A DNA stretch of 64,000 bases from positions 15,132 to 79,131 of the forward strand of contig JARIGS010000004.1 of the NCBI GenBank assembly GCA_029288725.1, written 5' to 3'. Source of the DNA: Candidatus Nomurabacteria bacterium. Its GTDB lineage: Bacteria > Patescibacteriota > Minisyncoccia > Phycocordibacterales > UBA9973. Below the pieces are notes generated by a model that made no database searches, had not been told where the DNA came from, and saw only the letters and a list, made by a program, of their open reading frames with translations. Position numbers and translations under genes: made by a program. Within the stretch, counting starts at the first letter, position 1. Every line of letters begins with the position of its first letter. Positions 2,088 to 39,800 of the stretch are shown here, in pieces.

Positions 2088-2179
2088 GCGGTTTTTCTTT
2101 AATACTTTTTTAGAAAAATTTTAACTATGAAAGGGTATGATGCGGAAAAATCATTTGTTCACCCTACAATTTAACTACC

Positions 2180-2620
2180 ATGATAGCACTCGTATCGTAT
2201 AACGATTGTCCTCATTTTCCTCGCGGTATTACCGTCATTGACGGTATAGAAGTACTTTTTTTGCCAAGGACTTTTCCTCAAAAAAAGTCGGCCCTCGTGT
2301 CTGCCGATGATGAAAACTGCCGCCTCCTTATGCAATACATTGATATCTTGGATGGGGTTAACATTTTTGTCGGAAAGAAATCATCAGGATCACTAGAGAT
2401 TATTTCACTGTTCTGTTCTTTATTTAAGAGTAAAGAAGAGAAACTTTTCTTTACGCTCTGTGATCATGATGAGCCGGAAAAAATACAATTACTCTCATCT
2501 CTTGGAATCGGTGAGAAGCAGTGGGTGGTGTTTAAGGACGGTCATACCCAATGCAAAGAATGGTATTGGATGTATGGCTGGATGATGTATACCATCAAAG
2601 AGTCTATCATGGCAGAATAA
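2180..2620 (+). CDS. Hypothetical protein (146 aa).
   Basis: Intact ORF ending directly at a hairpin terminator. No family motif recognised. Confidence 0.45.
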   Translation: MIALVSYNDCPHFPRGITVIDGIEVLFLPRTFPQKKSALVSADDENCRLLMQYIDILDGVNIFVGKKSSGSLEIISLFCSLFKSKEEKLFFTLCDHDEPEKIQLLSSLGIGEKQWVVFKDGHTQCKEWYWMYGWMMYTIKESIMAE

Positions 2621-2649
2621 AAAACCGTTTAGCGGTTTTTTATTTTTTG
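2621..2649 (+). terminator. Rho-independent terminator (AAAAACCG ttta CGGTTTTTT + T-run).
   Basis: Seen in sequence immediately after the stop at 2620. Confidence 0.7.
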
Positions 2650-2706
2650 GTTCTGTTTCGATGTGCTTTTTTGCTATACTATTACTGTTCACTTAATTAC
2701 TCTTTC

Positions 2707-3369
2707 ATGAAAATTCTCATAATTGAAGATGAGCCCGATATCGCAAACTTTTTGAAAAAGGGACTTACGGCCGAAATGTGCGTGGTTGAGGTTGCGGCTA
2801 CCGGCAAGGAGGGTATTGCCTGCGCGCGCAACAATTCCTATGATGCCATCATTCTTGACTTCCATCTCGGTGACATGACCGGTGTGGAAATCTCCGCTGC
2901 GATCAGAACATACAAACCTTCTATTCCCATTTTGGTCCTCAGTGTTGAGCGGGATATGGATATCAAGGTTGATATGCTTTCAATCTGCGATGACTATATG
3001 ACCAAGCCGTTCTCGCTTCGTGAGTTGACTGTGCGTCTTCACGCTCTAACCCGTCGTGGTACCGTCATGCGCAGCGATATCATGGAAGCCGGCGGTATTG
3101 TCCTCGACTCAACCAAATACACGGTTACCCTTGATGGCAACCCTATTGCTTTTCGCCACAAAGAGTTCGCTCTGCTTGAATACTTCATGCAGCATCAGGA
3201 TATTGTCCTGTCGCGCGAAATGATTCTTTCCCATGTTTGGGACATGAATGCTGACCCTTTCACCAATACCGTCGATACCCATGTACGTCTGCTCCGCAAA
3301 AAGCTGGAGATCGATGGCCATACCTTCATTCATACCGTACCGAAGCGCGGCTATCGTTTTTCCGTCTAA
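2707..3369 (+). CDS. OmpR/PhoB-family response regulator (receiver domain plus winged-helix domain).
   Basis: 'MKILIIEDEPDI...', phospho-acceptor region 'IILDFHLGDMTG', C-terminal wHTH '...VDTHVRLLRKKLE...PKRGYRF'. Start refined to ATG 2707 inside the longer track ORF. Confidence 0.9.
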   Translation: MKILIIEDEPDIANFLKKGLTAEMCVVEVAATGKEGIACARNNSYDAIILDFHLGDMTGVEISAAIRTYKPSIPILVLSVERDMDIKVDMLSICDDYMTKPFSLRELTVRLHALTRRGTVMRSDIMEAGGIVLDSTKYTVTLDGNPIAFRHKEFALLEYFMQHQDIVLSREMILSHVWDMNADPFTNTVDTHVRLLRKKLEIDGHTFIHTVPKRGYRFSV

Positions 3370-3464
3370 GGTTTTACCTTTTGTTTAAGTTTTTTTCATT
3401 AGTGTTTTACTAAAATTGTAATTGAATTTGTTTTATTTTCTTTTCACAATTTAAAAAAACACAC

Positions 3465-4439
3465 ATGAGAACAATTGAATGTCCAAAACCGCCTGAACAA
3501 AAAAGTTATGAGGCGGACACGATCTATCGCGTACTATCAAAGGATGACCCTATTTTTTACCGCGAAAGAACCGATCGAAACGAAGGGTTTATCGCGCTCA
3601 GTGATCAGCAAATGATTCGAAAAAAAGTCATTGGCGTTGCAGGGTGTGGTGGCATGGGAGGGTTACTTTCAGAAACATTGGTGCGATTGGGTATTGGCGA
3701 GATACATCTTGCCGACCTTGAGCTATTTGATATTTCCAACATTAATCGCCAGCTTTGTAGCACCTCTCTAAGTATTGGCAAACCAAAATTGCCTGAAACC
3801 GCTGAAAGACTTAACATCGTTTCCCCGGATGTTTGTCTCGAGTTGTATCATGAAGGCATTACGAAAAATAACGCATCGTACTTTCTTAGAAATTGCCTAT
3901 TTGGTTTGGATGAAATGGAGTTTTGGGCCCTTGGTTCAAAGATCGCATTTCATGAAGCGGCTCGTAAGCTAGGAATAACCGTGTTTACCGTACCGGTTGT
4001 AGGGCATGGCTTTTACATCTTTAAGTTCACCCCTGGCGGTATGACCATTGAAGAGGTGTTAGGCATGGATTATGAAGAGGCAATGATGTTGCAGATTAAA
4101 ATGCAAACAAGAACCGCAACGCTGAAAGAGGTTCGTAGGGCAATGAATGCGATGTTACGTTTAGTGACACCAGAGGGAATTCCTGAGTACTGCAAGGATA
4201 CTACCAAGCGCAGTACGACCCAAAGAGTGTTGGAAAGACTCGAGATGTACAACACGGCTTCAATTATTGCCACCACTCCTCCCATGGCATCAGGTGCCTT
4301 ATCAAGTGTCTTGTTATTTCACATCATGCAAGAGTCTGAATTTGAAATGAATTATGTATTAACCCCAGAAATGCCGGGGTATCAGATGTTTGACGCTGCT
4401 CGCTGGATAGCAAAGACACACGTAGGAAAATGGTGGTAA
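3465..4439 (+). CDS. ThiF/MoeB/E1-like adenylyltransferase-family protein with a ~130-aa C-terminal extension and no CxxC zinc motif.
   Basis: Nucleotide-binding 'GVAGCGGMGG' and 'LADLELFDISNINRQ' (E1-like D-x-D...NLNRQ block). Confidence 0.8.
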   Translation: MRTIECPKPPEQKSYEADTIYRVLSKDDPIFYRERTDRNEGFIALSDQQMIRKKVIGVAGCGGMGGLLSETLVRLGIGEIHLADLELFDISNINRQLCSTSLSIGKPKLPETAERLNIVSPDVCLELYHEGITKNNASYFLRNCLFGLDEMEFWALGSKIAFHEAARKLGITVFTVPVVGHGFYIFKFTPGGMTIEEVLGMDYEEAMMLQIKMQTRTATLKEVRRAMNAMLRLVTPEGIPEYCKDTTKRSTTQRVLERLEMYNTASIIATTPPMASGALSSVLLFHIMQESEFEMNYVLTPEMPGYQMFDAARWIAKTHVGKWW

Positions 4440-4475
4440 CACAAAAGGTATAAACACACCTAAAAACAAGAAATC

Positions 4476-5090
4476 ATGGAAATTATTGATGTAATCGAAG
4501 AATTGGTTGTTACCGCTTCGGAAGGCGTAATAATCAAATTAGTTACCCCCGTATCTGCTGAGCGAAAAGCTGTTGAAGACTTTGTCTTGGAAGAGTATTA
4601 CCATCGTATGGGTGGCGTGCTTGCCTCTACACCGGAAATTATCTTTGCTGCATTTGAAGAAGGAGTAGTGGTCGGTACGATGGGGTTGGAGTTTCAGGAG
4701 TTGTGTGGATTAATGCCGTGTGAGCACACGTTTGCATTTGATGTTGCGTCGCTCAAGTTTGGTTTGAACCGCAATCGTACCGCACAATATACCCGGCGGA
4801 TTATTAGATCGGACTACAAGGATGGAGCAACGCTTGGCCCGAAACTGATTGCTGCTGTTACTCAATTTGCATTAAGCCAAGGAAAGCTATATGGATTTTG
4901 CGAATTGAAACCCCCACTACTACGGCTAACTTCAAAACTCGGTATCGAATTACATGAAGTAAAAGGTAGTACGATACTGAAAGACAGTGTTCATCCCGAT
5001 GTTGCGAGTTTTTATCTTGTCGAGCCTTATCCAAAGCTCTACCAGATAGAGCTCGTGCAGGTGCTTGAGGCAATAACAAAGAGAAAATAA
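4476..5090 (+). CDS. Hypothetical protein, possibly a GNAT-fold acyltransferase-like (signal-synthase-like topology).
   Basis: 204 aa. 'AAFEEGVVVGTMGL' beta-strand and 'RSDYKDGATLGPKLI...LSQGKLYGFCE' resemble the GNAT core, but no diagnostic motif is certain. Lies between the ThiF-like gene and the histidine kinase with 2-35 nt spacings. Confidence 0.35.
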   Translation: MEIIDVIEELVVTASEGVIIKLVTPVSAERKAVEDFVLEEYYHRMGGVLASTPEIIFAAFEEGVVVGTMGLEFQELCGLMPCEHTFAFDVASLKFGLNRNRTAQYTRRIIRSDYKDGATLGPKLIAAVTQFALSQGKLYGFCELKPPLLRLTSKLGIELHEVKGSTILKDSVHPDVASFYLVEPYPKLYQIELVQVLEAITKRK

Positions 5091-5092
5091 CA

Positions 5093-7135
5093 ATGCGTCG
5101 TAACCCAGGCACGTATGCCTGGGTTATTTTATTAAAACAATCTATAATCCTTATGCCACTTATCACCATGCAATTCGCTATTTTTCAATATATTGCCATT
5201 AGCATCTGCGGCATCTTCATTGCCGCTATTGGCTTGTATGTCCTATATGCCAATGCACGCCGGGCTATAAACCGATGGTTCTGCGTACTGAGCCTTGGCA
5301 TTGCCGCTTGGAACATAGGATTGTCATTGCTGTTCTTCTTTCATGATACGTTTTTTATTACCGTCATTTTGGACGGCGCGATATTGATTGCGGTCGGACT
5401 GTTTTATTTTGGTAAGGTCTTTCCAACAGGAGCGGTGAAAAAGAGGGAATGGTGGTATCTCATTCCGGCAGTTGCCACTGCCATCATGGTGCCGTTCGGT
5501 CTGGTTATTTCCAGCGTTGCAATTACTGCCACTGGATATTTGGCACCGCATAACGAATTTTTATTTCCCGTCTACGGACTTTCGCAGATGGTGTATGCCT
5601 TGGGAGGAGTGCACTTTCTCATACGGAAATACATGTATGCCGAAGGTCAGGCCCGTCAAAAACTGCGCTATTTCTTTTTTGGCATCATCGTACTGGTGTG
5701 TGTTGGCTTGCTCTGTGACGTGATCCTGCCAAGCTTTTCCCTCTATCAATTCAACCTCTTTGGCCCGCTTGCATCACTAGTGCTGGTGGTTGCTACCGCC
5801 TACAGTATCTTGCGCCATAACCTCATGGACATTAGCGTGGTCATTCAGCGCAGTGTCATTTATATCGTACTGCTTAGTGTCATCGTTGCTACTTATGCAT
5901 TTGGCTTGGAACTTGTTGGCTACTTGCTCTCCAAAATCACGAACGTAGCGGTGATTGTCAGTGCCGGGGCAACCATGGTACTCGGCATATTCTTCATGCA
6001 TCCGATTCGCACATACCTGGAGCGGGTGACTGATCCTATTTTCTTCAAGAATAAGTATGTCTATTCGGATGCCATTGCCCGGCTGTCACGCATGCTCAAT
6101 ACAACGATGAGTCAGGCTGACCTTGTTGCGGCGTCTTCGGCGGCATTAGAGGAATTGTTCAAGACATCGCAGGTCGCATTTCTGCTGGCCAACAAGGGTG
6201 AGGAAGCGTTGCCGGCATGGGCTTCCGATATTCGCGTATCACAACCGATTATTTTTGAACATACCGTGATAGGAAAAGTGATACTGGGAAAGAAGCGTTC
6301 CGGGGATGCCTATACTTCCCAGGATATGCAATTGCTTGAAACATTTCTCGACCAGGCTGCCGTGGCATTGGAAAAGGGTCGTCTCTATGAAAAGGTTGAG
6401 GAATACAATACTCAGCTCGAACGCTTGGTCGATGACCGTACCAAGGAAATACAGCATATTCAGGAGGAGCAGAAGCGCATGATGATTGATATTTCTCACA
6501 ACCTGCAAACGCCGCTCGCTATCATTAATAATGACCTTGAAACAATGGCAGACTATTATCCTGATCAGGATAAGATTTTTTCCGTGAAGCGGTCGTTTTT
6601 GCGCGTGTCAGAATTCATCAGGCAATTGCTGCACCTTGCTCGTCTTGATGGGGTGTACGACATCACTCTTACCACATTCGACCTCTCTGAATTTCTCCGA
6701 CAGCAGGTTGAGTATTTTGAGGTGATGGGAAATGAGCAGGATCTTGAGGTTACGGCTGATATCCAGGATGGCGTAGTGTTCACGGGTGACATGCGTCTGC
6801 TCGGCGAGGCATTTACGAACATTGCACAGAACGCCATTAAGTATCGTCGTGAGAATGTGAAAAGCACGCTGCACATTACGCTTCGCGATGATGATACGAC
6901 AGTCACTGTTTCCATTAAGGATAACGGTATGGGAATTGAGGCAAAAGACCTTTCTTCAATCTTCGACCGTTTCTATCGAACGTCCCGCAGTTCCCAGATA
7001 TCAAAAGGGTCAGGGCTCGGTTTGGCCATTGTGAAAAAAATTGTTGATATGCATCATGGCAGCATCGCTGTGCACAGTGTTCTACAGGAAGGAACAGAAT
7101 TTGTACTGACATTTCCCAAGACCATTACTGGCTGA
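5093..7135 (+). CDS. Sensor histidine kinase with a multi-TM N-terminal sensor, a HisKA domain and a HATPase_c domain.
   Basis: At least 7 hydrophobic helices N-terminally. H-box 'DISHNLQTPL'. ATP-lid 'DNGMGIEAKDLSSIFDRFYR...GSGLGLAIV'. Confidence 0.9.
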   Translation: MRRNPGTYAWVILLKQSIILMPLITMQFAIFQYIAISICGIFIAAIGLYVLYANARRAINRWFCVLSLGIAAWNIGLSLLFFFHDTFFITVILDGAILIAVGLFYFGKVFPTGAVKKREWWYLIPAVATAIMVPFGLVISSVAITATGYLAPHNEFLFPVYGLSQMVYALGGVHFLIRKYMYAEGQARQKLRYFFFGIIVLVCVGLLCDVILPSFSLYQFNLFGPLASLVLVVATAYSILRHNLMDISVVIQRSVIYIVLLSVIVATYAFGLELVGYLLSKITNVAVIVSAGATMVLGIFFMHPIRTYLERVTDPIFFKNKYVYSDAIARLSRMLNTTMSQADLVAASSAALEELFKTSQVAFLLANKGEEALPAWASDIRVSQPIIFEHTVIGKVILGKKRSGDAYTSQDMQLLETFLDQAAVALEKGRLYEKVEEYNTQLERLVDDRTKEIQHIQEEQKRMMIDISHNLQTPLAIINNDLETMADYYPDQDKIFSVKRSFLRVSEFIRQLLHLARLDGVYDITLTTFDLSEFLRQQVEYFEVMGNEQDLEVTADIQDGVVFTGDMRLLGEAFTNIAQNAIKYRRENVKSTLHITLRDDDTTVTVSIKDNGMGIEAKDLSSIFDRFYRTSRSSQISKGSGLGLAIVKKIVDMHHGSIAVHSVLQEGTEFVLTFPKTITG

Positions 7136-7157: not shown

Positions 7158-8201
7158 ATGAATAAGAAAACCATCTCCCTGATCTTTTTGGCCGTAGCAT
7201 TTTTTGTCGCTGCTCATACCGTTTCCGCCCACGAAGTCTACGTATTGAATCAGCAGACGGTCAGCTACGATGTCAGTCATCCTTCGCCTGATCCATTGAC
7301 GATGGTGAAGGGGGATAGCAGTGACTTCCTGCTGGCAACAATTGTGGGAGTGATTTTGGTGGGAGGAATATTTCTGATTTCCATTTCACGAAGATTAGAA
7401 AAAGCCCTTAACCCACTTCTCATAAAGGCAAAACGCTGGGCGCCTCTAGTGGCGCGATTGACGCTCGGCCTTAGTCTGCTGGCAGCAGCATATTATCGAG
7501 CACTGTTCGGTCCGGAAATTCCTTTGGAAAGCCTGGTCGGGCATTATGCCGGAGTGCTGCAAATAGTGCTTTATCTTATCGGCGTTCTCATCATTATGGG
7601 ATTGTTTGTCCGTCAGAGCGCGTTCATTGCATTGGTGATATTTATTATTGCGGTAATTGCTGAGCGCACCTACATGCTGACCTACGTCAACTATCTTGGT
7701 GAAATCATTGCCAACCTCGTGCTCGGCGGTGGATTGTGGTCGCTTGACCGTCATCTGAACAAGGCAACTATTGCGAATAGTGCCGCTCGTTGGAAGGAAA
7801 GATTGGAACCGTATGCATTTCCGACTTTGCGCGTACTCTTTGGTATTTCCGCGCTGTATGCCTCGTGGTATGCCAAGCTCTTTCATGCCAGCCTTGCCTT
7901 GGATACCGTGACTCAATATCACTTAACAAACTACTTCCACTTTCCCGCACTGTTTGTGGTGCTTGGAGCGTTGATTGTTGAAACACTCGTTGGTGTCTTT
8001 TTCATCCTAGGCATTGAGATTCGCTTTACCGCATTATTTTTTCTGATGTTCCTCACGCTCTCACTGTTTTTCTTCGGAGAAGTAGTCTGGCCGCATATCG
8101 TGCTGATTGGCGTAAACATTGCCTTTATCCTGCACGGCTATGATCGGTACTCACTGGAGGGTCACTTTTTTAAACGCAGGAAGATAGAGCCGGTATTATA
8201 A
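7158..8201 (+). CDS. Polytopic membrane protein with an N-terminal signal peptide (hypothetical).
   Basis: Signal-like 'MNKKTISLIFLAVAFFVAAHTVSA' followed by multiple long hydrophobic helices. Confidence 0.55.
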   Translation: MNKKTISLIFLAVAFFVAAHTVSAHEVYVLNQQTVSYDVSHPSPDPLTMVKGDSSDFLLATIVGVILVGGIFLISISRRLEKALNPLLIKAKRWAPLVARLTLGLSLLAAAYYRALFGPEIPLESLVGHYAGVLQIVLYLIGVLIIMGLFVRQSAFIALVIFIIAVIAERTYMLTYVNYLGEIIANLVLGGGLWSLDRHLNKATIANSAARWKERLEPYAFPTLRVLFGISALYASWYAKLFHASLALDTVTQYHLTNYFHFPALFVVLGALIVETLVGVFFILGIEIRFTALFFLMFLTLSLFFFGEVVWPHIVLIGVNIAFILHGYDRYSLEGHFFKRRKIEPVL

Positions 8202-8229
8202 TCTTGCTCACTATTGCTATACTATAGGT

Positions 8230-8784
8230 ATGGAACATAACAAGGCGATAGCGATATTTGGAGGAGGGTGCTTCTGGTGTACCGAAGCAGTCTTTAAGAT
8301 GATGAAGGGCGTGAGTTCGGTCCTGCCGGGATATGCTGGAGGAACAACCGATAATCCGACCTACGAGCAGGTATCAGAAGGAAATACCGGACACGCTGAG
8401 GTAGTACGCATTGAATACGATCCGACACAGGTGCGGTATGAGGATCTGCTAACGGTATTTTTCGGCAGTCATGATCCGACGACACTGAATCAGCAGGGGA
8501 ATGATATTGGCACGCAGTATCGCTCAGTTATTTTTTATACGAATGACGAGCAGAAGGCCGCGGCGGAATCATTCATTGCTGACATGAATGCCTCAAATAG
8601 TGCTGGTGCTCCGGTAGTGACGGAAGTCGTGCCATTTGAGAAGTTTTATGAAGCCGAGGATTACCACAAGGATTATTATGCCCATCATCAAAATGCCGGG
8701 TACTGCCAAGTGGTGATCAATCCAAAATTGGAAAAAGTCCAGAAACAGTTCGCTGACTTATTAGTAGCTATTAATAAAGAGTAA
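8230..8784 (+). CDS. msrA: Peptide methionine sulfoxide reductase A.
   Basis: '[12 protein letters not shown]' active-site motif. Length 184 aa. Confidence 0.9.
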
Positions 8785-8788
8785 TTGT

Positions 8789-9208
8789 ATGGAAAACAAA
8801 TCCGCCGACGCTAACGCTATGGCGAGACAAAGAACCGAAGAAGAGTGGAAGAAGGAACTGACACCTGAGCAGTATGAGGTCTTGCGCGGCGGAGGCACTG
8901 AGGCACCATTCAAAGGAAAATATGTTCATGAAAATAGTGTTGGTACGTATGTCTGCATGGCCTGCGGCAATCCATTGTTCTCGTCCAGCACTAAGTTTGA
9001 TTCGAAAAGCGGCTGGCCGTCATTTGATGACGCATTGCCAGAAGCGGTAAAGTTTAAGGAAGATACTAGTCATGGTATGAGTCGGGTAGAGGTGGTCTGT
9101 GCCCAATGCGGTTCACACCTTGGCCATGTCTTTCCTGATGGTCCGGAGGAAACGACAGGGCAGCGATACTGTATTAATTCTGTCTGTCTCGATCTTAAAA
9201 AGGAATAG
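8789..9208 (+). CDS. msrB: Peptide methionine sulfoxide reductase B (zinc-binding).
   Basis: Two CxxC pairs ('CMACGNPLF', '[12 protein letters not shown]') and 'SGWPSF' motif. Confidence 0.9.
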
Positions 9209-9273: not shown

Positions 9274-9693
9274 TTACTGAGAAACAGTAGTACTTGTTGT
9301 GGTAGTAGCAGAAGCCTTCTTTGCGGCCTTAGCAGCCTTTGCTGCTGCCTGTACTGCCTTGCGGTCAGTAGCAATTTTCTTAGCGTCAGCCTTAACAGTT
9401 GCCGCGTCAGTCTTTATCTTCGCCTTGTCAGCAGCAATAGCGGTCTTTGCTGTGCTGATGCCAGCAGTATCCTTAGCCTTCTTTGCTGTTGCAAGAGCCT
9501 TGGTGTCAGTTGCAAGCTGGATCTTGTCAGCTTTCACCGTAGCCTGATCGGTGACGTAGGCCTGGCGATCAGCTGCAAGCGTAGCACTTGCTGATGTTGA
9601 TACAGCTGGAGTGGTAGTCTGTGCTGATGCTACTGAGACGAATAGTCCGAGTGCAAGAGGGGCAATTGTTGCGGTAAGCAATGCTTTTTTCAT
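9274..9693 (-). CDS. Secreted low-complexity Ala/Lys/Thr-rich repeat protein with repeated 'KADxxKIATD' helical motifs.
   Basis: Signal peptide 'MKKALLTATIAPLALGLFVSVASA'. Start refined to ATG 9693 inside the longer track ORF. Last gene of the sigma/anti-sigma operon. Confidence 0.55.
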   Translation of the reverse strand: MKKALLTATIAPLALGLFVSVASAQTTTPAVSTSASATLAADRQAYVTDQATVKADKIQLATDTKALATAKKAKDTAGISTAKTAIAADKAKIKTDAATVKADAKKIATDRKAVQAAAKAAKAAKKASATTTTSTTVSQ

Positions 9694-9775
9694 ATGATAT
9701 AAAACGAGTAAGCAGCGATAAATACTAATATGGTGCCGGCTTACCCCCTTAATACGCGGAAAGGACAGGTTTCTT

Positions 9776-10483
9776 TCATTTCTTCCAAGGTAGGACCGTG
9801 GTGGCCTGGAAATGGCTGCCATCAATCATGGCGCCGGTTATCTTCACTCGTACACCGGGCATAATGATGGTATCAATGCGGGTATCTGGAGCAAATGTCA
9901 CTTCCCATGGCTGGCCATCGCTATCAACAATACTAAATCCGTATATGGTATTGGCCTGCACCTTTCCCGAAAGGAGTCCATCCTCAGGATAGATCCAAAT
10001 GTCACGGTTGCTACTGACCACCGTGCGATAGGCGGGAATAGCGTGATCAAAATAATTGTCGAGATATGCTCCGGCTCCGGCAAAAAATAAAACTGTCCCA
10101 AGGGCTAGACTTGCTCCCAGGCTCCAAAGAATAATTCTGCCTGAGGCGTAGCGATATCCTCGTCCGACCTTTTTAATATTGTTTGCAATCAAGAACATGG
10201 CACACATCAGAATGACAAGCCATACATAGGGGATGGTTTTTATAGCGTGCAGGAACCAGCCTTCGCGCAGCTGGCTTACGGCAAACCAGTCATGATCAGT
10301 GAGGATAAAGAGGGAAACAGTAACAGCAATGCTTCCGATAAGGGTGACAATGATAATGAATGTCATGAAGAACCATTGCTCGGTGAGGAAATACCACTGT
10401 GAGCGGGGGCGCAGTTTCTTGGCGTGAATCTCTTCCAGTATTTTGTTGTTCAATGCGTCATTGTTCATGGTGTTTTTCTTCAA
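9776..10483 (-). CDS. Putative membrane-anchored anti-sigma factor (single TM, extracytoplasmic C-terminal domain).
   Basis: Directly downstream of, and overlapping, the ECF sigma gene. Short cytoplasmic N-terminus, TM 'FFMTFIIIVTLIGSIAVTVSLFIL', then a periplasmic domain. Confidence 0.5.
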   Translation of the reverse strand: MKKNTMNNDALNNKILEEIHAKKLRPRSQWYFLTEQWFFMTFIIIVTLIGSIAVTVSLFILTDHDWFAVSQLREGWFLHAIKTIPYVWLVILMCAMFLIANNIKKVGRGYRYASGRIILWSLGASLALGTVLFFAGAGAYLDNYFDHAIPAYRTVVSSNRDIWIYPEDGLLSGKVQANTIYGFSIVDSDGQPWEVTFAPDTRIDTIIMPGVRVKITGAMIDGSHFQATTVLPWKK

Positions 10484-11033
10484 GGAGAGTTCTTAATCGT
10501 TGCTTTGCTCTGCTGAGTAGGGTAGCGATGGTCCCTGGAGGCTTTTGCAAAATATCCGCTATCTCATCATAGCTCTTGTCTTCGAAATATTTCAAGACAA
10601 TGACATCCTTGTATTTCTGATCAAGCATGTTCAGTACCTCCTTCATACGCTCCGCGTCAATCATTTCTTCTGTCTGTGTGGTCGGGTCTGTTTCGCCGTG
10701 GTCGGCATCGGCAAGCATTTCGGTGATATTCAGCTGTTCAAGTGATAGGGGCTGCAGCTGCTTTCGACGGAAATAACTCATTGTCTCGTTGTGGGTAATG
10801 CGATAGATCCACGATGAGAAAGGAAAGTCGTTGTTGTAGCCATTGAGGTTGCGATAGACCTTGATGAAGACCATCTGCAGAATGTCTTCCTGTTGGGCAG
10901 CGTCGCGCATGCCCAAGTGGCCGACATAGCGCATAAGCTTGGCCCGATAGCGATCCATGATATGACGGTAGGACTCAGGATCTTTTAGGGTGGCCGCCAC
11001 TAACTCTTTGTCGCTTTGTTCCTCGGGGGTCAT
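10458..11033 (-). CDS. ECF-type RNA polymerase sigma-70 family factor.
   Basis: Region-2-like 'ILQMVFIKVYRNL...FSSWIYRITHNE' and region-4 HTH 'SYDEIADILQKPPGTIATLLSRAKQRL'. Confidence 0.85.
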   Translation of the reverse strand: MTPEEQSDKELVAATLKDPESYRHIMDRYRAKLMRYVGHLGMRDAAQQEDILQMVFIKVYRNLNGYNNDFPFSSWIYRITHNETMSYFRRKQLQPLSLEQLNITEMLADADHGETDPTTQTEEMIDAERMKEVLNMLDQKYKDVIVLKYFEDKSYDEIADILQKPPGTIATLLSRAKQRLRTLLEEKHHEQ

Positions 11034-35494: not shown

Positions 35495-36766
35495 ATGAAA
35501 GTTATCGAAAAAACACTTCCTAATGGATTGCGTGTGGTCATGGTACCGCAGGCTGATGCTGCTACCGCGACTGTACTGATCTTGGTCGGTGCAGGGTCAA
35601 AGTACGAAACAAAAAGGGAAAATGGCCTGTCGCATTTTTTGGAGCACATGTTTTTTAAAGGCACCACGCTTCGTCCAACGGCAAAGATTATTTCCGAACA
35701 GCTCGACAATCTCGGTGCCGTATCAAATGCATTCACGTCACATGAATACACTGGGTACTATGTTAAGGGCAATCCGAAGCACACGGAAACATTCATCGAT
35801 GTGCTGAGTGATATTTACTTGCACTCACTGTTTTCAGAAAAGGAAATTGAAAAGGAGAAGGGCGTGATCATTGAAGAGATCAACATGTATGAAGACATGC
35901 CGCAGCACAAAGTATGGGATGTGTTATTCGCAACGATGTACGGTGACCAACCAGTAGGGTGGCCGATTTCTGGAACTAAGGAACACGTGCGCAATTTTTC
36001 GCGAAAAGATTTTCTGCGCTATCAAAAGGAGCACTACACGTCGAGCAACACGGTCATCACTATTGCCGGTGCATTTGATGAAAAGAAAATATTTGCTGCC
36101 ATCAAGAAACAATTTGGTACAGTTGCAATGACTGATGCAAAAGATAAAAAGAAGGTCCGTGATACGCAAAAGGCATTTCAGCAAAAAGTTTTCCACAGGA
36201 AGACTGATCAGGCACACCTCGCATTGGGCTTCAGATCACCCGCTTTAGGACACAAAGATGGTCCTACGGCAAGTCTTTTGGCGACAATGTTAGGGGGAGG
36301 AATGAGCGCTCGGCTGTTCCAGGAGCTACGTGAAGAGCTTGGTGTGGCGTACTATGTTCGGGCGGAACATGACCCCTTTACGGACCACGGCATGTTTACA
36401 ATTAGCGCCGGAATCACCACTAATCGATTGACAGAGGTACTTGATTGTATTGTAGCTGTGTTACAGGATTTGAAAAATAACCCTATAAACAAAGAAGAAT
36501 TGACAAAAATACAGGAATACAGTGTAGGGATGATGCGTTTGGGGCTAGAATCCAGTGACAGTATCGCTGGATTTTATGGCAGCCAATTGCTGCTCAAAAA
36601 AGGCTACAAGACCCCCGAACAACTGACAAAAGAGTACCTCAGCGTGACCCCAGAGGACCTCAAAAGGGTGGCAAAAAAGATCTTTGTTTCGACCAGTGCA
36701 ACCCTCGTTTTAGTCGGTCCTTTTGATGAAAAAAAACTGATCGAAAACCCTCTAAAAAACCTTTAG
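35495..36766 (+). CDS. M16-family zinc metallopeptidase (pitrilysin/insulinase-like).
   Basis: Inverted zinc-binding motif 'HFLEHMFFKGT' (HxxEH) and downstream E. Confidence 0.85.
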   Translation: MKVIEKTLPNGLRVVMVPQADAATATVLILVGAGSKYETKRENGLSHFLEHMFFKGTTLRPTAKIISEQLDNLGAVSNAFTSHEYTGYYVKGNPKHTETFIDVLSDIYLHSLFSEKEIEKEKGVIIEEINMYEDMPQHKVWDVLFATMYGDQPVGWPISGTKEHVRNFSRKDFLRYQKEHYTSSNTVITIAGAFDEKKIFAAIKKQFGTVAMTDAKDKKKVRDTQKAFQQKVFHRKTDQAHLALGFRSPALGHKDGPTASLLATMLGGGMSARLFQELREELGVAYYVRAEHDPFTDHGMFTISAGITTNRLTEVLDCIVAVLQDLKNNPINKEELTKIQEYSVGMMRLGLESSDSIAGFYGSQLLLKKGYKTPEQLTKEYLSVTPEDLKRVAKKIFVSTSATLVLVGPFDEKKLIENPLKNL

Positions 36767-36815
36767 AAATAGTTTATTATTGGTAATTTGTGGAGTATAC
36801 TTATGAAGTATATTT

Positions 36816-39800
36816 ATGCACCTCAGTTCCCAACGATTCAATCGGATTATTGCCATCCTCGCCATCCTCTCGACGGTGAGCGTTTTTGCGTATAGAGCCG
36901 CTGCGTCTTCGTTGCCGGGTGCCTTCCTCGGATCAAAAATTACGGTCGGTGACACCAACAACACCTATGCCATTGCCGACACCAACTACCTCGAAGGAGG
37001 ACACATGCAGGTGGCAACCCATGCGGCTTTGTTGGCCATCACTCGTGAGCGTCGCGAAGTCGGCATGCTTGTCACTGTCGTCGATGATGACACGGGAACA
37101 GTGGGAAATCAGACCGTAACCTATCGTCTGATCAGCAATCCAACTGCGGATGGTTCAGGAGGAACCGCAACACCAACAACCGATGCAAACTGGACAGTGA
37201 TCATTCCTTCACTTGGTGGAAACGGAGGTAAGTTCTTGACGACTGATGGTACGACCGTAAGCTGGGCAACGGTCAGTGGCGGAGGAGGCGGTGGTACCTA
37301 TACTGCTGGTACTGGTTTGACACTCACCGGCAGTGCGTTCTCCGTGAACACTTCACAGAATATTGCAACCCTCTCTAATCTCACCACTGACGGTTTTGTA
37401 AGAACTACTGGTGCGAATGGCACGCTTACTTCTGCACCACTTTCATCTGCAGAAGTTGCCAGTGCGCTTGGGTACACCCCGTACAATGCATCAACCAATT
37501 CTTCTGGGTACATTGCCGGCAATCTTACCGGTGCGATTACTTCCGTAGGCAATGCTACCTCACTTGGTTCATTTACCTCTGCAAATCTCAGCGGTGCACT
37601 CACTGATGAGACGGGAAGTGGGGCAGCAGTATTTGCCAACTCACCAACATTCGTGACGCCAACACTCGGTGCCGCAAATGCGACATCAGTCAATGGCTTG
37701 TCACTTACTGCAAATCCAACTGGTTTTGCCATTGCTGGTGGTAGTACTACTTCAAAGACTCTTACCATTTCAAATTCATTAACACTTGCTGGTACTGACG
37801 GCTCAACGCTCAACATCGGCACTGGTGGCACGCTTGGTTCTGCAGCCTTCACCAACGCTTCTGCGTATGAAGTGCCGCTAACGTTTAGCACTGGACTCAC
37901 CAGAACAGGTAATACCATTACGGTGAATGCATCACAAAATATTTCTACACTCTCAAACCTCACCTCAAACGGTTTGATTAAGACAACAGGAGGAACGGGG
38001 GCGCTTTCGATTGCGGCCGCTGATATTGATTACTCTACACCAACTGGTGTTGAGACAATTACCAATAAGGATTTTACCTCTGGTACCAACACTTTCCCAA
38101 CATTCAACCAGAATACGACCGGTAGTGCGGCAACATTAACCACAGCTCGATTGATTGCCGGCAACAGCTTCAACGGCTCAGCCAATGTGCCGTTTGCAAA
38201 CAAATTCATTGTTCAGGGTACGAGTGATGCTGGTCTGACCGGCGCCCAGTTCCTTGGTGCATTGGCAACAGGCTTATTAAAAAACACGACCACCACTGGC
38301 GTACTGTCAGTCGCTACTCCTGGTAGTGATTATGAAGTGCCGCTGACATTTTCAACAGGACTGACACGCACCGTTAACACCATCACTGTCAATACTTCAC
38401 AGAACATTTCCACACTCTCAAATCTCACCTCGAACGGTTTCGTCACCACGTCTGGTGGTACGGGCGCACTTTCTGTCACCGGATCAACGGGGTCTGGCAA
38501 TGTCGTGCTTGCAACATCTCCAACATTGGTAACACCGGTATTGGGTGCTGCTACCGCAACAAGTATCAATAAAGTTGCCTTTACCGCTCCCGCAACTGGT
38601 GCAACGTTGACTATTGCTGATGGCAAGACGCTTACTGCATCAAACTCCCTTACCTTTGCCGGTAGTGATGGATCGACATTGAATGTTGGTAGTGGAGGAA
38701 CATTGGGAACTGCGGCATATACCAGTTCATCAGCGTATGAAGTGCCGCTAACATTCAGTACTGGTCTTACTCGTACTGTTAACACCATCACTGTTAACAC
38801 TTCCCAGAACATCGCGACCCTTTCAAACCTCACTTCAAACGGTTCAGTCCAGACATCCGGAGGCAACGGTACGCTTTCCGTCGTTGCTAATACCGGTACC
38901 GGTAACAATGTCCTTGCGAATTCACCAAGTCTCACTAGTCCCTCTTTTTCAACAATTGTAAATACTGGTACACTGACACTCCCTACTTCTACCGATACGC
39001 TGGTTGGTCGTGCAACAACTGACACACTAACCAACAAAACTATAAGTGGATCAAACAATACACTGACCAATATTCCAAACAGTGCTCTTACCAACTCATC
39101 ATTAACGCTTGCTCTCGGCACGTCTGGTACTGACGTAAACTGGGGTGCATCAACGGTCTCATTGGGCGGTACTGCAACGCTCAACATTCCTGATGCCTCT
39201 GCCACCGCTCGAGGCCTTATCACTACTGGCGCGCAGACCATTGCCGGTGCAAAGACATTTTCAAGTTCAGCGACATTCTCAGCATATACGTCAGGTTCAG
39301 TGCCTTATATTTCAACTGGTGGATTGCTAGCGCAGGACAATGCGAATTTCTTCTATGACGGAATAAACCACCGATTGGGATTGGGCACCACCTCACCGTC
39401 TGCCTTCATCCATGTTCTAGGAACAACCGAGCAGCTTCGTCTCGGATATGATGCAAGCAACTATGGATCATTTACCACTGGCAACACTGGAGGGCTTACC
39501 GTTACCACCACCGGAACGAATGCAAATGTTAACCTCAGTCCTGCTACGGGCATTGTCACCGTGAACGGTACTATCCCCGAGCAGCGCTTCGTCACCTCGG
39601 GCGACAGCAACTACGCGCGCTTCCAGCGCTCAACCGCAAGCGACCAGTTCGTCGGCAAGAACAACGTCTTGCAGTCAGGGGGAGTAGGAAAGGCAATTAC
39701 CGTAACACTTGGTGCCAATCGATATCTTCAAGCTTCTGATGCAGGGTTGCCTACTGGTAGTTCCATTACGTTAAGTTTCAGTGAATGGTATAAATGGACT

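Follow-up and report, generated by a model that had tools for sequence, protein, structure and literature searches.

Genes and features at the locus

We analyzed a window of 64,000 nucleotides from a Candidatus Nomurabacteria bacterium (contig JARIGS010000004.1), to which all positions refer. It contains a block of four co-directional open reading frames encoding a response regulator (RR), a ThiF-like protein, a 204-aa protein and a sensor histidine kinase (HK). The coordinates of this block were confirmed, as were two of the spacings given by a first-pass annotation, namely 95 nt between the regulator and ThiF-like genes and 36 nt between the ThiF-like gene and the 204-aa ORF; the third, 2 nt before the kinase gene, applies to the longest kinase ORF only. 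The locus comprises the following features:

2098..2123, + strand: three in-phase TTTA boxes (2098, 2109, 2120), 60–80 nt upstream of the gene at 2180–2620
2180..2620, + strand: up146, a conserved 146-aa neighbour and probable regulon member; homologues adjoin the cassette in 12 loci
2614..2656, + strand: terminator-like hairpin that follows up146; a box pair (2628, 2639) preceding the regulator gene overlaps it
2707..3369, + strand: OmpR/PhoB-family response regulator (Pfam Response_reg (REC) and Trans_reg_C)
3373..3409, + strand: direct-repeat TTTA boxes in tandem, 11-nt period (3373, 3384, 3406; degenerate TTCA at 3395)
3438..3456, + strand: conserved element TTCTTTTCACAATTTAAAA, shortly before the start of ThiF, with similar elements in other spacers
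3465..4439, + strand: ThiF-like protein, putative ATP-dependent carboxylate-adenylating enzyme and cyclase candidate (PF00899, AF2 model, invariant residues)
4476..5090, + strand: divergent GNAT, predicted to be of the AHL-synthase/FeeM (N-acyl amino acid synthase, NAS) type (AF2, Foldseek, hhalign)
5100..5137, + strand: GC-rich hairpin with a 12-bp stem and a T run, in the spacer that follows the GNAT gene and precedes the probable start of the kinase
5153..7135, + strand (longest ORF from 5093): polytopic sensor histidine kinase

The kinase has ~9–10 transmembrane (TM) helices in residues 1–305, with no sizeable external loop in this region, followed by a GAF-like region, HisKA and HATPase_c. 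Since 38 homologous kinases align only from residue ~25–40 of the window protein onward, its true start is probably M21 (5153), which gives a GNAT–kinase spacer of ~62 nt.

A conserved arrangement in Patescibacteria

The order RR, ThiF, GNAT, HK, hereafter the cassette, is preserved with all genes on one strand in 32/55 ThiF-family loci, so that the tight gene order described in the first-pass annotation, which had named neighbourhood conservation as a check, recurs in related genomes. A homologous kinase lies downstream in 46 of the 55 loci, a homologue of the window regulator upstream in 33 and both in 32, and the arrangement is therefore far beyond chance. Nearly all cassette loci come from Patescibacteria MAGs, and the enzyme genes are held between RR and HK across dozens of otherwise rearranged genomes. 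Because the ThiF and GNAT genes overlap in most family loci and are fused in several relatives (L001, L015, P0002, P0009, P0012, P0022, P0079), they are, on this genomic evidence, a conserved functional pair. The conserved cassette contains no exporter, and the flavin oxidase of known oxazolone pathways is absent from it, either as a separate gene or as a fused domain.

The two enzymes

The 324-aa ThiF-like protein matches PF00899 over residues 41–197 (E 2e-21). The GxGxxG loop and NINRQ block reported earlier are present as GCGGMG (60–65) and SNINRQ (91–96), and R35, R38, the GCGGMG loop, D84, N94-R95-Q96, K108 and D149 are invariant in the family, as are the ATP and Mg residues. Neither a CxxC motif nor a conserved crossover-loop Cys occurs in the protein, and the gene has no rhodanese domain or ThiS/MoaD neighbour. 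The C-terminal ~127 aa, previously described as unique, proved to be conserved family-wide (R258, ‘IIATNPPMA’, ‘MPGY..FDA’) and are modelled with high confidence (AF2, pLDDT 94.8 for the whole protein). The closest NCBIfam model is PRK08223 (115 bits, below cutoff), and among solved structures its best neighbours are AclA (9egb), PaaA, ThiF and MoeB. With 52 bits against the TrzS model and 59 bits against true ThiF, the protein is no closer to TrzS.

Homologues are annotated as ‘molybdopterin/thiamine biosynthesis adenylyltransferase’ or ‘tRNA A37 threonylcarbamoyladenosine dehydratase’, which would fit a housekeeping ThiF/MoeB/TcdA enzyme placed by chance, together with an unrelated acetyltransferase, inside a two-component system (TCS) operon. 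We consider this hardly credible: every equivalog score is far under its cutoff (ThiF 59/275, TcdA 44/304, MoeB 43/266), the ThiS/MoaD, CxxC and rhodanese hallmarks are missing, and dozens of genomes share both the gene arrangement and the fusions. The ordinary TcdA/MoeB identity, named in the first-pass annotation as a refutation of its reading, is not borne out.

For the 204-aa protein, the AF2 model (pLDDT 90) confirmed the proposed GNAT fold, although the sequence stays below Pfam thresholds (FeeM 18.2 bits vs 27). Its best Foldseek matches are BjaI, LasI, TofI and MesI, with FeeM also among the matches; the structural neighbours of TyzA are likewise AHL synthases and FeeM (PMC10404671). 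Within the GNAT family, 16/32 members match Pfam FeeM and 15/32 T_hemolysin, and hhalign against the FeeM-type NAS of Firmicutes gave a probability of 95.9% (E 6.5e-9). The protein is also homologous to the C-terminal domain of the ThiF fusions, and in some cassettes the GNAT slot holds proteins above Pfam thresholds for Acetyltransf_5 or FeeM (including the P0029 fusion). The family carries Gln (Q104) in place of the Glu that is invariant in the ‘AEISAF’ motif of FeeM-type NAS; its chemistry may therefore differ.

Proteins, peptides or tRNA are the substrates of most ThiF-like enzymes characterised so far, and the ThiF-like protein of the cassette could accordingly adenylate a peptide or protein C terminus (cf. 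MccB, PaaA, Cap2, Bil/Bub E1); the GNAT-fold protein would then transfer or modify the adenylated species, with the kinase or regulator as a conceivable target. PaaA is its second-best structural neighbour, the Rossmann-type adenylation fold is common to all these systems, and Cap2 E1-E2 models and MccB give weak matches. However, these matches span only the Rossmann/ATP loop (residues ~45–135), and the cassette lacks an E2 domain or JAB partner, a conserved catalytic Cys, CxxC, an RRE or peptide-clamp domain, and any conserved small ORF. Furthermore, at most loci the ThiF and GNAT genes overlap, the spacers are taken up by boxes or hairpins, and the partner GNAT falls in a small-molecule acyltransferase branch. 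Such conjugation is therefore improbable, and the Ub-like or Mcc-type branch of the earlier proposal finds no backing beyond the nucleotide-binding loop; its failure to find a ubiquitin-like or MccA-like small ORF nearby was reproduced for Ubl and precursor ORFs.

Phased boxes and hairpins

Tandem boxes with an 11-nt period are typical of OmpR-type sites. Across 30 RR–ThiF spacers, we counted 34 TTTA pairs at distance 11 vs 2.6 expected (z 20, 0/300 shuffles) and 19 at distance 22 vs 2.4 expected. The density of phased pairs reached 10.6/kb in these spacers vs 0.58/kb in the other intergenic DNA of the loci, an 18-fold difference. Phased boxes are present in cassettes with or without an adjacent RR and absent from 5/6 proteobacterial/Thermoanaerobaculia loci outside CPR and from 3/3 Firmicutes loci checked; a single in-phase pair was seen at one locus from Rickettsiales (L050). 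This pattern suggests that the regulator controls the ThiF-GNAT enzymes, with 3373..3409 as the putative site where it binds and as a candidate promoter for the ThiF-GNAT unit. Elements resembling TTCTTTTCACAATTTAAAA ([ACT]ACAAT, then an A-rich run) occur in ~10/30 spacers, as judged by eye, and are possibly a −10 region or short leader.

At least three TTTA at 11-nt steps occur at just two places in the whole 64-kb window, one of which is 2098..2123. In 12 loci, a homologue of the up146 product is encoded beside the cassette (E 1e-10 to 1e-34), and the homologues of 10/12 other loci have similar boxes, on either strand; up146 is probably a regulon member. Its invariant residues are Y7, N8, K35, G65, K66, S69, C94, H96, C125 and E127. 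It has no match in Pfam, NCBIfam or PADLOC, and the sole PDB profile match is glutaredoxin-like and non-significant.

At the GNAT–kinase junction, most loci have an analogous hairpin and T run of differing sequence, and the window hairpin is terminator-like, acting as a putative terminator or attenuator. Together with the box-bearing spacer before ThiF, this conserved hairpin argues against the single tight four-gene operon assumed before.

Co-diversification of acyltransferase and sensor

GNAT distances follow those of the kinase TM sensor (Spearman 0.67, Mantel p ≤ 0.0005, partial r 0.68; not tree-aware) but are uncorrelated with the kinase core (−0.12), RR (−0.13) and ThiF (0.02), and regulator divergence tracks the kinase core (r 0.57). 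The covariation falls to r 0.275 (p 0.013) without six cassettes with divergent GNAT types, and it should be read with the caveat that the GNAT gene physically adjoins the sensor-coding end of the kinase gene. These data suggest that the membrane sensor of the kinase co-diversifies with the acyltransferase.

Among cassette kinases, sensor regions matched PrsK (TIGR02916) in 13/39 (best E 3e-14, model positions 4–448) and the LIC10906 family membrane protein in 14/39; the window kinase itself reaches E 0.037 only against PrsK. By these profiles, the sensor region is distantly PrsK-like. Both systems combine a polytopic TM region with GAF, HisKA and HATPase, whereas the cassette sensor scores far under the PrsK cutoff (52 vs 300), the cassette regulator is OmpR-type rather than a sigma-54 activator, and exosortase and PEP-CTERM proteins were not seen with the cassette. 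We know of no PrsK loci carrying a ThiF-like gene. A genomic link between NAS genes and a PrsK-type system has been reported (Craig, Cherry and Brady 2011).

Relation to known systems

The closest known system, unnamed in the first-pass annotation, is the acyl-oxazolone pathway, whose core is formed by a NAS and a ThiF-like cyclase, a pairing established by experiment (OxzAB, TyzACB, TrzAS). As in the cassette, OxzAB (Pseudoalteromonas rubra), TyzACB and TrzAS (Mycobacterium tuberculosis) have an AHL-synthase/FeeM-like N-acyltransferase beside or fused to a ThiF-like enzyme, which activates the carboxylate of an N-acyl amino acid with ATP and then cyclises it. The acyltransferases share structural neighbours (BjaI, FeeM), and the adenylation-motif Asp that is essential in TrzS (D217) is conserved in the cassette (D149). 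In contrast to these pathways, the cassette has no nitroreductase-superfamily flavin oxidase, places ThiF before GNAT, carries Gln for the motif Glu, and is embedded in a TCS and found in Patescibacteria. An N-terminal ‘ERTDRN’ motif and a helical C-terminal region are particular to its ThiF, which does not demonstrably belong to the TyzB/OxzB/TrzS sequence cluster.

In the nearest ThiF relatives outside CPR, the partner always belongs to lipid or amino-acid chemistry. A FeeM NAS matching TIGR03694 lies directly upstream in 21 Firmicutes loci; in other phyla, a type I PKS, FAAL-ACP, or an a/b-hydrolase with an MFS transporter adjoins the gene. Some proteins fuse ThiF with FeeM/Autoind_synth domains, a methyltransferase or a glycosyltransferase. 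The uncharacterised Firmicutes pairs found here (FeeM-NAS and a 252-aa ThiF; Alkalibacterium, Paenibacillus and others) share with the cassette the ThiF clade (best model PRK08223, 184–188 bits), a homologous NAS, overlapping genes and the lack of a flavin oxidase. Unlike the cassette, they have the order NAS then ThiF, no flanking TCS, and a short ThiF without the CPR-type C-terminal region. The two loci checked for this (L062, L065) have a divergently transcribed HD-GYP-type (HD_5) gene.

Synthase genes next to polytopic kinases are known from quorum sensing (agrBDCA; LuxM/LuxN; AinS/AinR; CqsA/CqsS, LqsA/LqsS). Like these, the cassette joins putative signal-synthesis genes to a many-TM kinase without a large external domain and a response regulator, with direct-repeat sites upstream of the synthesis genes to which the regulator would bind; as in agr specificity groups, synthase and sensor domain co-diversify. 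In contrast, its enzymes are unrelated apart from the LuxI-like fold of the GNAT, its regulator is OmpR-type rather than LytTR or phosphorelay, an export/processing gene is absent, and signalling is proposed from sequence.

A candidate autoinducer cassette

The ThiF-GNAT pair looks like a TCS-linked module that makes and activates an acyl amino acid. As the best explanation, to which we assign a probability of about 0.5, we propose an autoinduced small-molecule signalling cassette in which the TCS flanks, controls and probably senses a two-enzyme pathway; pathway chemistry and ligand are deduced by analogy. Going by fold and homology, the GNAT would N-acylate an amino acid using a fatty acyl-CoA or acyl-ACP. 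By comparison with OxzB, TyzB and TrzS, the ThiF-like enzyme would adenylate the free carboxylate with ATP, and the activated group would yield a 5(4H)-oxazolone, a side-chain lactone or lactam, or react with another nucleophile; since the cassette lacks a flavin oxidase, the product would be saturated. The regulator would bind the boxes before the ThiF-GNAT unit and up146, with the terminator-like hairpin setting this unit apart from the kinase gene. Considering covariation and architecture, the PrsK-like kinase may sense the lipophilic product or its precursor within the membrane, closing a positive-feedback, autoinducer-type loop analogous to the quorum-sensing cassettes. Patescibacteria mostly lack fatty-acid synthesis, and the source of the acyl donor counts against this reading. 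So do the missing exporter and flavin oxidase, the sub-threshold Pfam score of the window GNAT, its family's Gln for Glu, the TrzS score no better than that of true ThiF, and the weaker covariation once divergent GNAT types are set aside.

A less likely but serious explanation is that the TCS controls a lipid or natural-product pathway without sensing its product. The kinase would sense a host-derived lipid or the state of the membrane or envelope and switch on ThiF-GNAT (and up146), yielding an acyl-amino-acid lipid for membrane remodelling, free fatty acid detoxification or antagonism. Boxes and terminator indeed make ThiF-GNAT resemble a regulated target unit amid regulatory genes, antimicrobial N-acyl tyrosine derivatives and stress-linked oxazolones have been reported, the relatives outside CPR sit in biosynthetic-cluster-like contexts without TCS, and an exporter or other quorum-sensing hallmark is absent. 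However, this leaves unexplained why GNAT type and divergence track the kinase TM domain and not its core, the regulator or ThiF, and why the enzymes stay between RR and HK despite extensive rearrangement.

Altogether, the signalling or modification module of the first-pass annotation stands in part, as a probable small-molecule synthesis pair that phased boxes and sensor covariation appear to tie to a TCS, without its conjugation branch. We found no description of such a circuit in CPR/Patescibacteria in the literature. If the autoinducer reading is true, many of these ultra-small bacteria would possess a built-in chemical signalling circuit.

Layout of the gene block

The response regulator, ThiF-like enzyme, GNAT-like protein and polytopic histidine kinase reported in the first-pass annotation were all recovered as co-directional ORFs at the positions assigned to them.

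Features of the gene block in the window
2707-3369, +: OmpR-type response regulator (REC and Trans_reg_C domains)
3373, 3384, (3395) and 3406: TTTA-core boxes in front of the ThiF gene
3465-4439, +: 324-aa ThiF-family protein (PF00899 at residues 41-197, E 2e-21)
4476-5090, +: 204-aa GNAT-like ORF
5093-7135, +: 680-aa kinase, longest ORF (about 9-10 TM helices, GAF-like stretch, HisKA, HATPase_c)
5100-5137, +: GC-rich hairpin with a 12-bp stem, then a T run, in the GNAT-kinase spacer

The TM helices of the kinase are confined to its first 305 residues, with the GAF-like stretch, HisKA and HATPase_c behind them. Since the alignment with kinase homologues (n = 38) begins only at window residue ~25-40, translation probably starts at M21 (position 5153). 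The 2-nt spacing originally given between the GNAT and kinase genes is an artefact of choosing the longest ORF, and with the M21 start the spacer measures ~62 nt. A GC-rich hairpin with a T run divides the two genes in most loci (range L001-L066 of the related genomic loci); its location is constant but its sequence is not, and the hairpin in the window may act as terminator or attenuator and so determine the enzyme:kinase transcript ratio. As boxes precede the ThiF gene and a hairpin precedes the kinase gene, the block is probably not one simple operon: the gene order first described is kept, but a single transcription unit is not supported. The likely layout, judged from sequence, is the regulator, then the boxes with the ThiF-GNAT pair and a terminator or attenuator, then the kinase.

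The element TTCTTTTCACAATTTAAAA at 3438-3456, just 5' of the ThiF start codon, is found in about one third of the related spacers and may represent a -10 region, in which case the leader would be very short. Neither the ThiF nor the kinase gene is preceded by an evident Shine-Dalgarno sequence. An Rfam scan of the window (1-64000) gave no family at gathering score and no tRNA, rRNA or riboswitch.

Conservation of the gene order

More than 150 relatives of the ThiF-like protein were found, at 38-47% identity; where a source name is given, it is Parcubacteria, Nomurabacteria, Liptonbacteria, Paceibacterota or Patescibacteria. Our locus survey, restricted to one genome per species, returned 266 relatives, from which 80 loci were retained. 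Among the 55 loci with full-length ThiF matches, a homologous polytopic kinase lies downstream in 46, and in 44 of these the ThiF-kinase gap of ~500-900 nt has room for one small gene. A homologous regulator is found upstream of ThiF in 33/55 loci, regulator and kinase together in 32/55; several loci that break the pattern are contig ends. Slots in which phmmer missed a GNAT are still occupied by an ORF of 178-217 aa. In nearly all loci, the GNAT gene either adjoins the ThiF gene, usually with an overlap of a few bases, or is fused to it. Several ThiF relatives are fusion proteins of ~520 aa in which a homologue of the 204-aa protein makes up the C-terminal half (P0012, E 1e-27); in the fusion P0029, the GNAT is of another kind (Pfam Acetyltransf_5). 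The cassettes closest to that of the window are L009 and L001. Only the regulator, the kinase and the 146-aa gene at 2180-2620, termed up146 here, are recurrently conserved neighbours. Because order and fusions are kept across loci, the four genes form a conserved Patescibacteria cassette and no chance arrangement, and the comparison of gene neighbourhoods suggested at first pass thus supports the synteny of the regulator-ThiF-GNAT-kinase order.

In one Paceibacteria contig (L010:1930-5354), two paralogous polytopic kinases follow the GNAT gene in tandem.

The ThiF-like enzyme

The AF2 model of the ThiF-like protein (pLDDT 94.8) has the ThiF/E1 adenylation fold, with AclA (PDB 9egb) as closest solved relative, accompanied by PaaA, ThiF and MoeB. 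The ATP and Mg2+ adenylation motif is intact: the GxGxxG loop (GCGGMG), D84, N94-R95-Q96, K108 and D149, and with them all nucleotide/Mg residues, are invariant in 31 sequences, and D149 would be equivalent to the essential Asp D217 of TrzS. The first-pass description of a protein with the GCGGMG loop and an SNINRQ block, and with neither a CxxC motif nor a rhodanese domain, was accurate; the C-terminal extension that it called unique comprises ~127 residues that are conserved in the family and modelled with high confidence.

The best NCBIfam model is the uncharacterised PRK08223 (115 bits), compared with 52 bits for the Rv1355c (TrzS) family (cutoff 476) and 59 for the true ThiF model. We rejected the assignment to an ordinary housekeeping enzyme (ThiF, MoeB or TcdA), an outcome that the first-pass annotation had allowed for: every housekeeping equivalog model scores far short of its cutoff, CxxC pairs for Zn binding are lacking, and the neighbours are a regulator, a GNAT and a kinase, with no sulfur-carrier gene (ThiS/MoaD) beside the enzyme, which makes this assignment hardly credible.

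The first-pass annotation had also considered conjugation-type functions, namely E1-like Ubl conjugation or MccB-type peptide adenylation. PADLOC E1-E2 and PDB Cap2/MccB matches do exist, but they are restricted to residues ~45-135, i.e. to the ATP loop, and the protein has no conserved Cys or CxxC. The cassette contains no E2 or catalytic-Cys module, no Ubl or precursor-peptide gene and no JAB or peptide-clamp domain. Tiny ORFs ending in Asn or Gly-Gly, which had been suggested for 3370-3464 and 4440-4475, are absent from both stretches; the cassette spacers are occupied by boxes and hairpin and hold no small ORF. We therefore consider such functions very improbable. Membership in a PADLOC defence system was rejected, its matches being to the nucleotide loop alone.

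The GNAT and acyl-amino-acid chemistry

AF2 modelling (pLDDT 90) gave the 204-aa protein a GNAT fold. [quoted passage not shown] A single-sequence search returned the protein itself only, and a PDB sequence search gave no match. We therefore used profile and fold methods on a family built from the downstream ORFs of related loci. Pfam matches of the window GNAT are sub-threshold for FeeM (18.2 bits, E 2e-3) and T_hemolysin (16.1 bits, E 1e-2) at a cutoff of 27; weak matches to these models occur in 16/32 and 15/32 family members, respectively, and in some cassettes the GNAT in the slot exceeds the Pfam threshold. By hhalign, the family aligns with bona fide FeeM-type NAS over 164 columns (probability 95.9%, E 6.5e-9). 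The invariant Glu E99 of the FeeM-type 'AEISAF' motif (E-x-S-x-F strand) aligns with the nearly invariant Q104 of the family; E83, nearly invariant there too, offers an acidic alternative. The window GNAT falls below the curated FeeM threshold, and Gln stands in place of the motif Glu.

Members of the ThiF clade occur outside the Patescibacteria (CPR) as well. In 21 Firmicutes loci, a 252-aa ThiF relative (PRK08223, 184-188 bits) lies directly behind an overlapping ~202-aa gene, which belongs to the FeeM family above threshold in the two loci scanned with Pfam (48 and 47 bits vs 27); no flavin oxidase was seen in these loci. The alphaproteobacterial relative adjoins a fully reducing type I PKS, those of Omnitrophota and Planctomycetia follow a fatty-acyl-AMP-ligase-ACP protein, and that of Legionella norrlandica precedes a 210-aa ORF, an a/b-hydrolase and an MFS transporter. 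A representative library yielded fusions of FeeM, Autoind_synth or Acetyltransf_5 with ThiF, of ThiF with a methyltransferase, of a GNAT with a methyltransferase and of ThiF with a glycosyltransferase; the library profile included ThiF columns and was used for family size and fusion discovery only. The NAS pairing, the PKS/FAAL contexts and the fusions point to small-molecule acyl-amino-acid chemistry and away from protein conjugation.

In the OxzAB, TyzACB and TrzAS pathways, the product of an N-acyltransferase, an N-acyl amino acid, is cyclised ATP-dependently to an oxazolone by a ThiF-like enzyme, and a nitroreductase-family flavin oxidase desaturates the oxazolone. The Patescibacteria cassette shares with them an NAS-like GNAT beside or fused to a ThiF-like gene. 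However, it would have only the first two activities: a nitroreductase-superfamily flavin oxidase is absent from every cassette gene and from up146. Oxidase-deficient TrzS variants still form the saturated cyclised intermediate. It is quite likely that GNAT and ThiF encode a small-molecule acyl-amino-acid pathway.

The overlapping FeeM-type NAS and 252-aa ThiF genes occur in Alkalibacterium, Paenibacillus, Niallia and others (L055-L080, e.g. L062:5031-7786). A divergent HD-GYP-type (HD_5) gene stands beside the pair in 2/2 Firmicutes loci checked, which recalls the c-di-GMP genes adjoining trzAS of M. tuberculosis. Non-CPR members of the ThiF clade lie in biosynthetic-cluster-like contexts (L035:6962-14929, L059:5001-7792, L064:4974-7939, L033:6212-10734), with a type I PKS that has a terminal condensation-like stretch, with FAAL-ACP, or with an a/b-hydrolase, MFS transporter and Haem_oxygenase_2-type iron enzyme.

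TTTA boxes and a putative regulon

The spacers between regulator and ThiF have little sequence in common, but they carry tandem boxes with a TTTA core every 11 nt, for example GTTTAGAAAAAGTTTAAG and CTTTACAACTTCTTTACA. Over the window spacer and those of 29 loci, 34 pairs of TTTA at distance 11 were observed vs 2.6 expected (z 20; 0/300 dinucleotide shuffles), and 19 pairs at distance 22 vs 2.4 expected. The density of box pairs is 10.6/kb in these spacers vs 0.58/kb across 84 intergenic regions elsewhere in the loci. Boxes precede ThiF even in cassettes without an adjacent regulator. They are absent from 5/6 non-CPR proteobacterial/Thermoanaerobaculia loci checked and from 3/3 Firmicutes loci; the Rickettsiales locus L050 has a single in-phase pair. 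Direct repeats with an 11-nt period are the usual site architecture of the OmpR/PhoB family. The boxes are candidate regulator sites upstream of the synthase genes, at which binding would close a positive feedback, and control of the ThiF-GNAT unit by the flanking two-component system is likely.

Elsewhere in the 64 kb, three in-phase boxes occur only at 2098-2123, upstream of up146. Homologues of up146 stand beside the cassette in 12 loci, on either strand, 10 of them with boxes. The gene (2180-2620, +) has no family match; a metal or redox site is suggested by the invariant residues Cys94, His96, Cys125 and Glu127 of its product.

A box-like pair, CTTTAGAAATAGTTTAT, lies at 36761-36777, 40-55 nt upstream of the ORF 36816-44336 (+), whose 2506-aa product has Laminin_G_3 and Peptidase_S74 (endosialidase chaperone) domains and resembles a giant protein of surface or fibre type. 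This ORF could be a further regulon member, with two boxes only, which may have arisen by chance.

The kinase sensor and its covariation with the GNAT

The sensor region of the kinase is almost without extramembrane loops. It matches the model of PrsK, the polytopic kinase of PEP-CTERM systems, in 13/39 cassettes (best E 3e-14, model positions 4-448) and the LIC10906 family membrane protein in 14/39. The architecture of polytopic TM region, GAF, HisKA and HATPase_c is shared with PrsK. However, the best family member reaches 52 bits against the TIGR02916 cutoff of 300 (window kinase E 0.037), and the regulator partner is of OmpR type, that of PrsK being the sigma-54-type PrsR; neither exosortase nor PEP-CTERM proteins were seen. 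A likeness to LuxN (2/39 sequences, E ~0.01-0.02) is not significant and was not used.

For 25 complete cassettes, we aligned each component and compared pairwise distances, a comparison that is not tree-aware.

Distance correlations between cassette components (Spearman r)
Regulator vs kinase core: 0.57
GNAT vs kinase TM sensor domain: 0.67 (Mantel p <= 0.0005)
GNAT vs kinase core: -0.12
GNAT vs kinase linker: 0.04
GNAT vs regulator: -0.13
GNAT vs ThiF: 0.02

The correlation between regulator and kinase is expected for partners. That between GNAT and sensor persists once the other four components are removed (partial r 0.68). The GNAT gene lies directly against the end of the kinase gene that encodes the sensor, yet the equally adjacent ThiF gene is uncorrelated. 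Six cassettes with divergent slot proteins and correspondingly divergent sensor domains contribute much of this signal, and without them the correlation is 0.275 (p 0.013); four of the five divergent slot proteins scanned with Pfam are GNATs above the Acetyltransf_5 or FeeM thresholds. The covariation is indirect evidence for the pathway product being the signal of the kinase, an idea that we hold at slightly less than an even chance. The main rival retains the same chemistry and lets the kinase sense something else; it would have to accommodate the covariation, and we regard it as rather unlikely.

Other genes in the neighbourhood

A 347-aa multi-TM protein with weak HTTM/DoxX matches (7158-8201, +) starts 22 nt past the stop codon of the kinase, with msrA and msrB behind it, the block spanning 7158-9208 (+). 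We rejected it as part of the cassette: these genes are not conserved alongside, save for one distant copy in L013. Further downstream lie an Ala/Lys/Thr-rich repetitive protein (9274-9825, -), an adjoining membrane protein (9776-10483, -) and an ORF whose translation resembles an ECF-type sigma factor (10458-11033, -). A sigma/anti-sigma pair may be encoded within 9274-11033 (-).

A possible autoinduction circuit

We propose that the GNAT would form an N-acyl amino acid, whose carboxylate the ThiF-like enzyme would adenylate, driving cyclisation or transfer. Within the membrane, the polytopic kinase would sense this lipophilic product or its precursor, and the regulator would govern the ThiF-GNAT unit and up146 via the phased boxes, resulting in an autoinduction loop. 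The loop resembles synthase-kinase quorum-sensing cassettes as a functional class, not as a homology family. We give this four-part reading a probability of roughly 0.5.

A more specific version is tentative. It would be a quorum-sensing-like circuit of Patescibacteria, in which the product of an NAS-type GNAT and ThiF is sensed by a PrsK-like kinase and, as in agr, synthase and sensor co-diversify into specificity groups. The GNAT would be fast-evolving and AHL-synthase-like, the product either an oxazolone in saturated form or, by a non-LuxI route, a lactone or lactam resembling AHLs, and the regulon up146 and perhaps 36816-44336.

NAS with a ThiF-like cyclase, polytopic PrsK-like kinases and synthase-kinase cassettes are each known already; in the literature we found no paper combining these elements. 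What is new is that the cassette lacks an oxidase, sits inside a two-component system with a box motif of its own, pairs a synthase and a sensor that co-diversify, and is confined to Patescibacteria. According to a 2025 review, oxazolone formation is the sole validated reaction of a ThiF-like enzyme on a small molecule, and the cassette would widen this chemistry. What bacterial N-acyl amino acids and oxazolones do physiologically is, according to the TrzAS authors, unresolved. An oxazolone-type pathway wired to a dedicated kinase and regulator makes for a direct receptor-ligand hypothesis. If the quorum-sensing-like version is true, it would provide a physiological role for oxazolone-type lipids and a ligand class for PrsK-type kinases.

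PrsK-type kinases control exopolysaccharide and floc formation, and no ligand of theirs is known to have been identified. A distant PrsK relative linked to an NAS suggests acyl amino acid derivatives as candidate ligands. At ~4.5 kb, the cassette is small enough for heterologous reconstitution. Patescibacteria are very small episymbionts, for the most part uncultured, whose biosynthetic capacity is minimal, and a conserved, self-regulated signalling cassette would alter the view of their communication with other cells and with their hosts.
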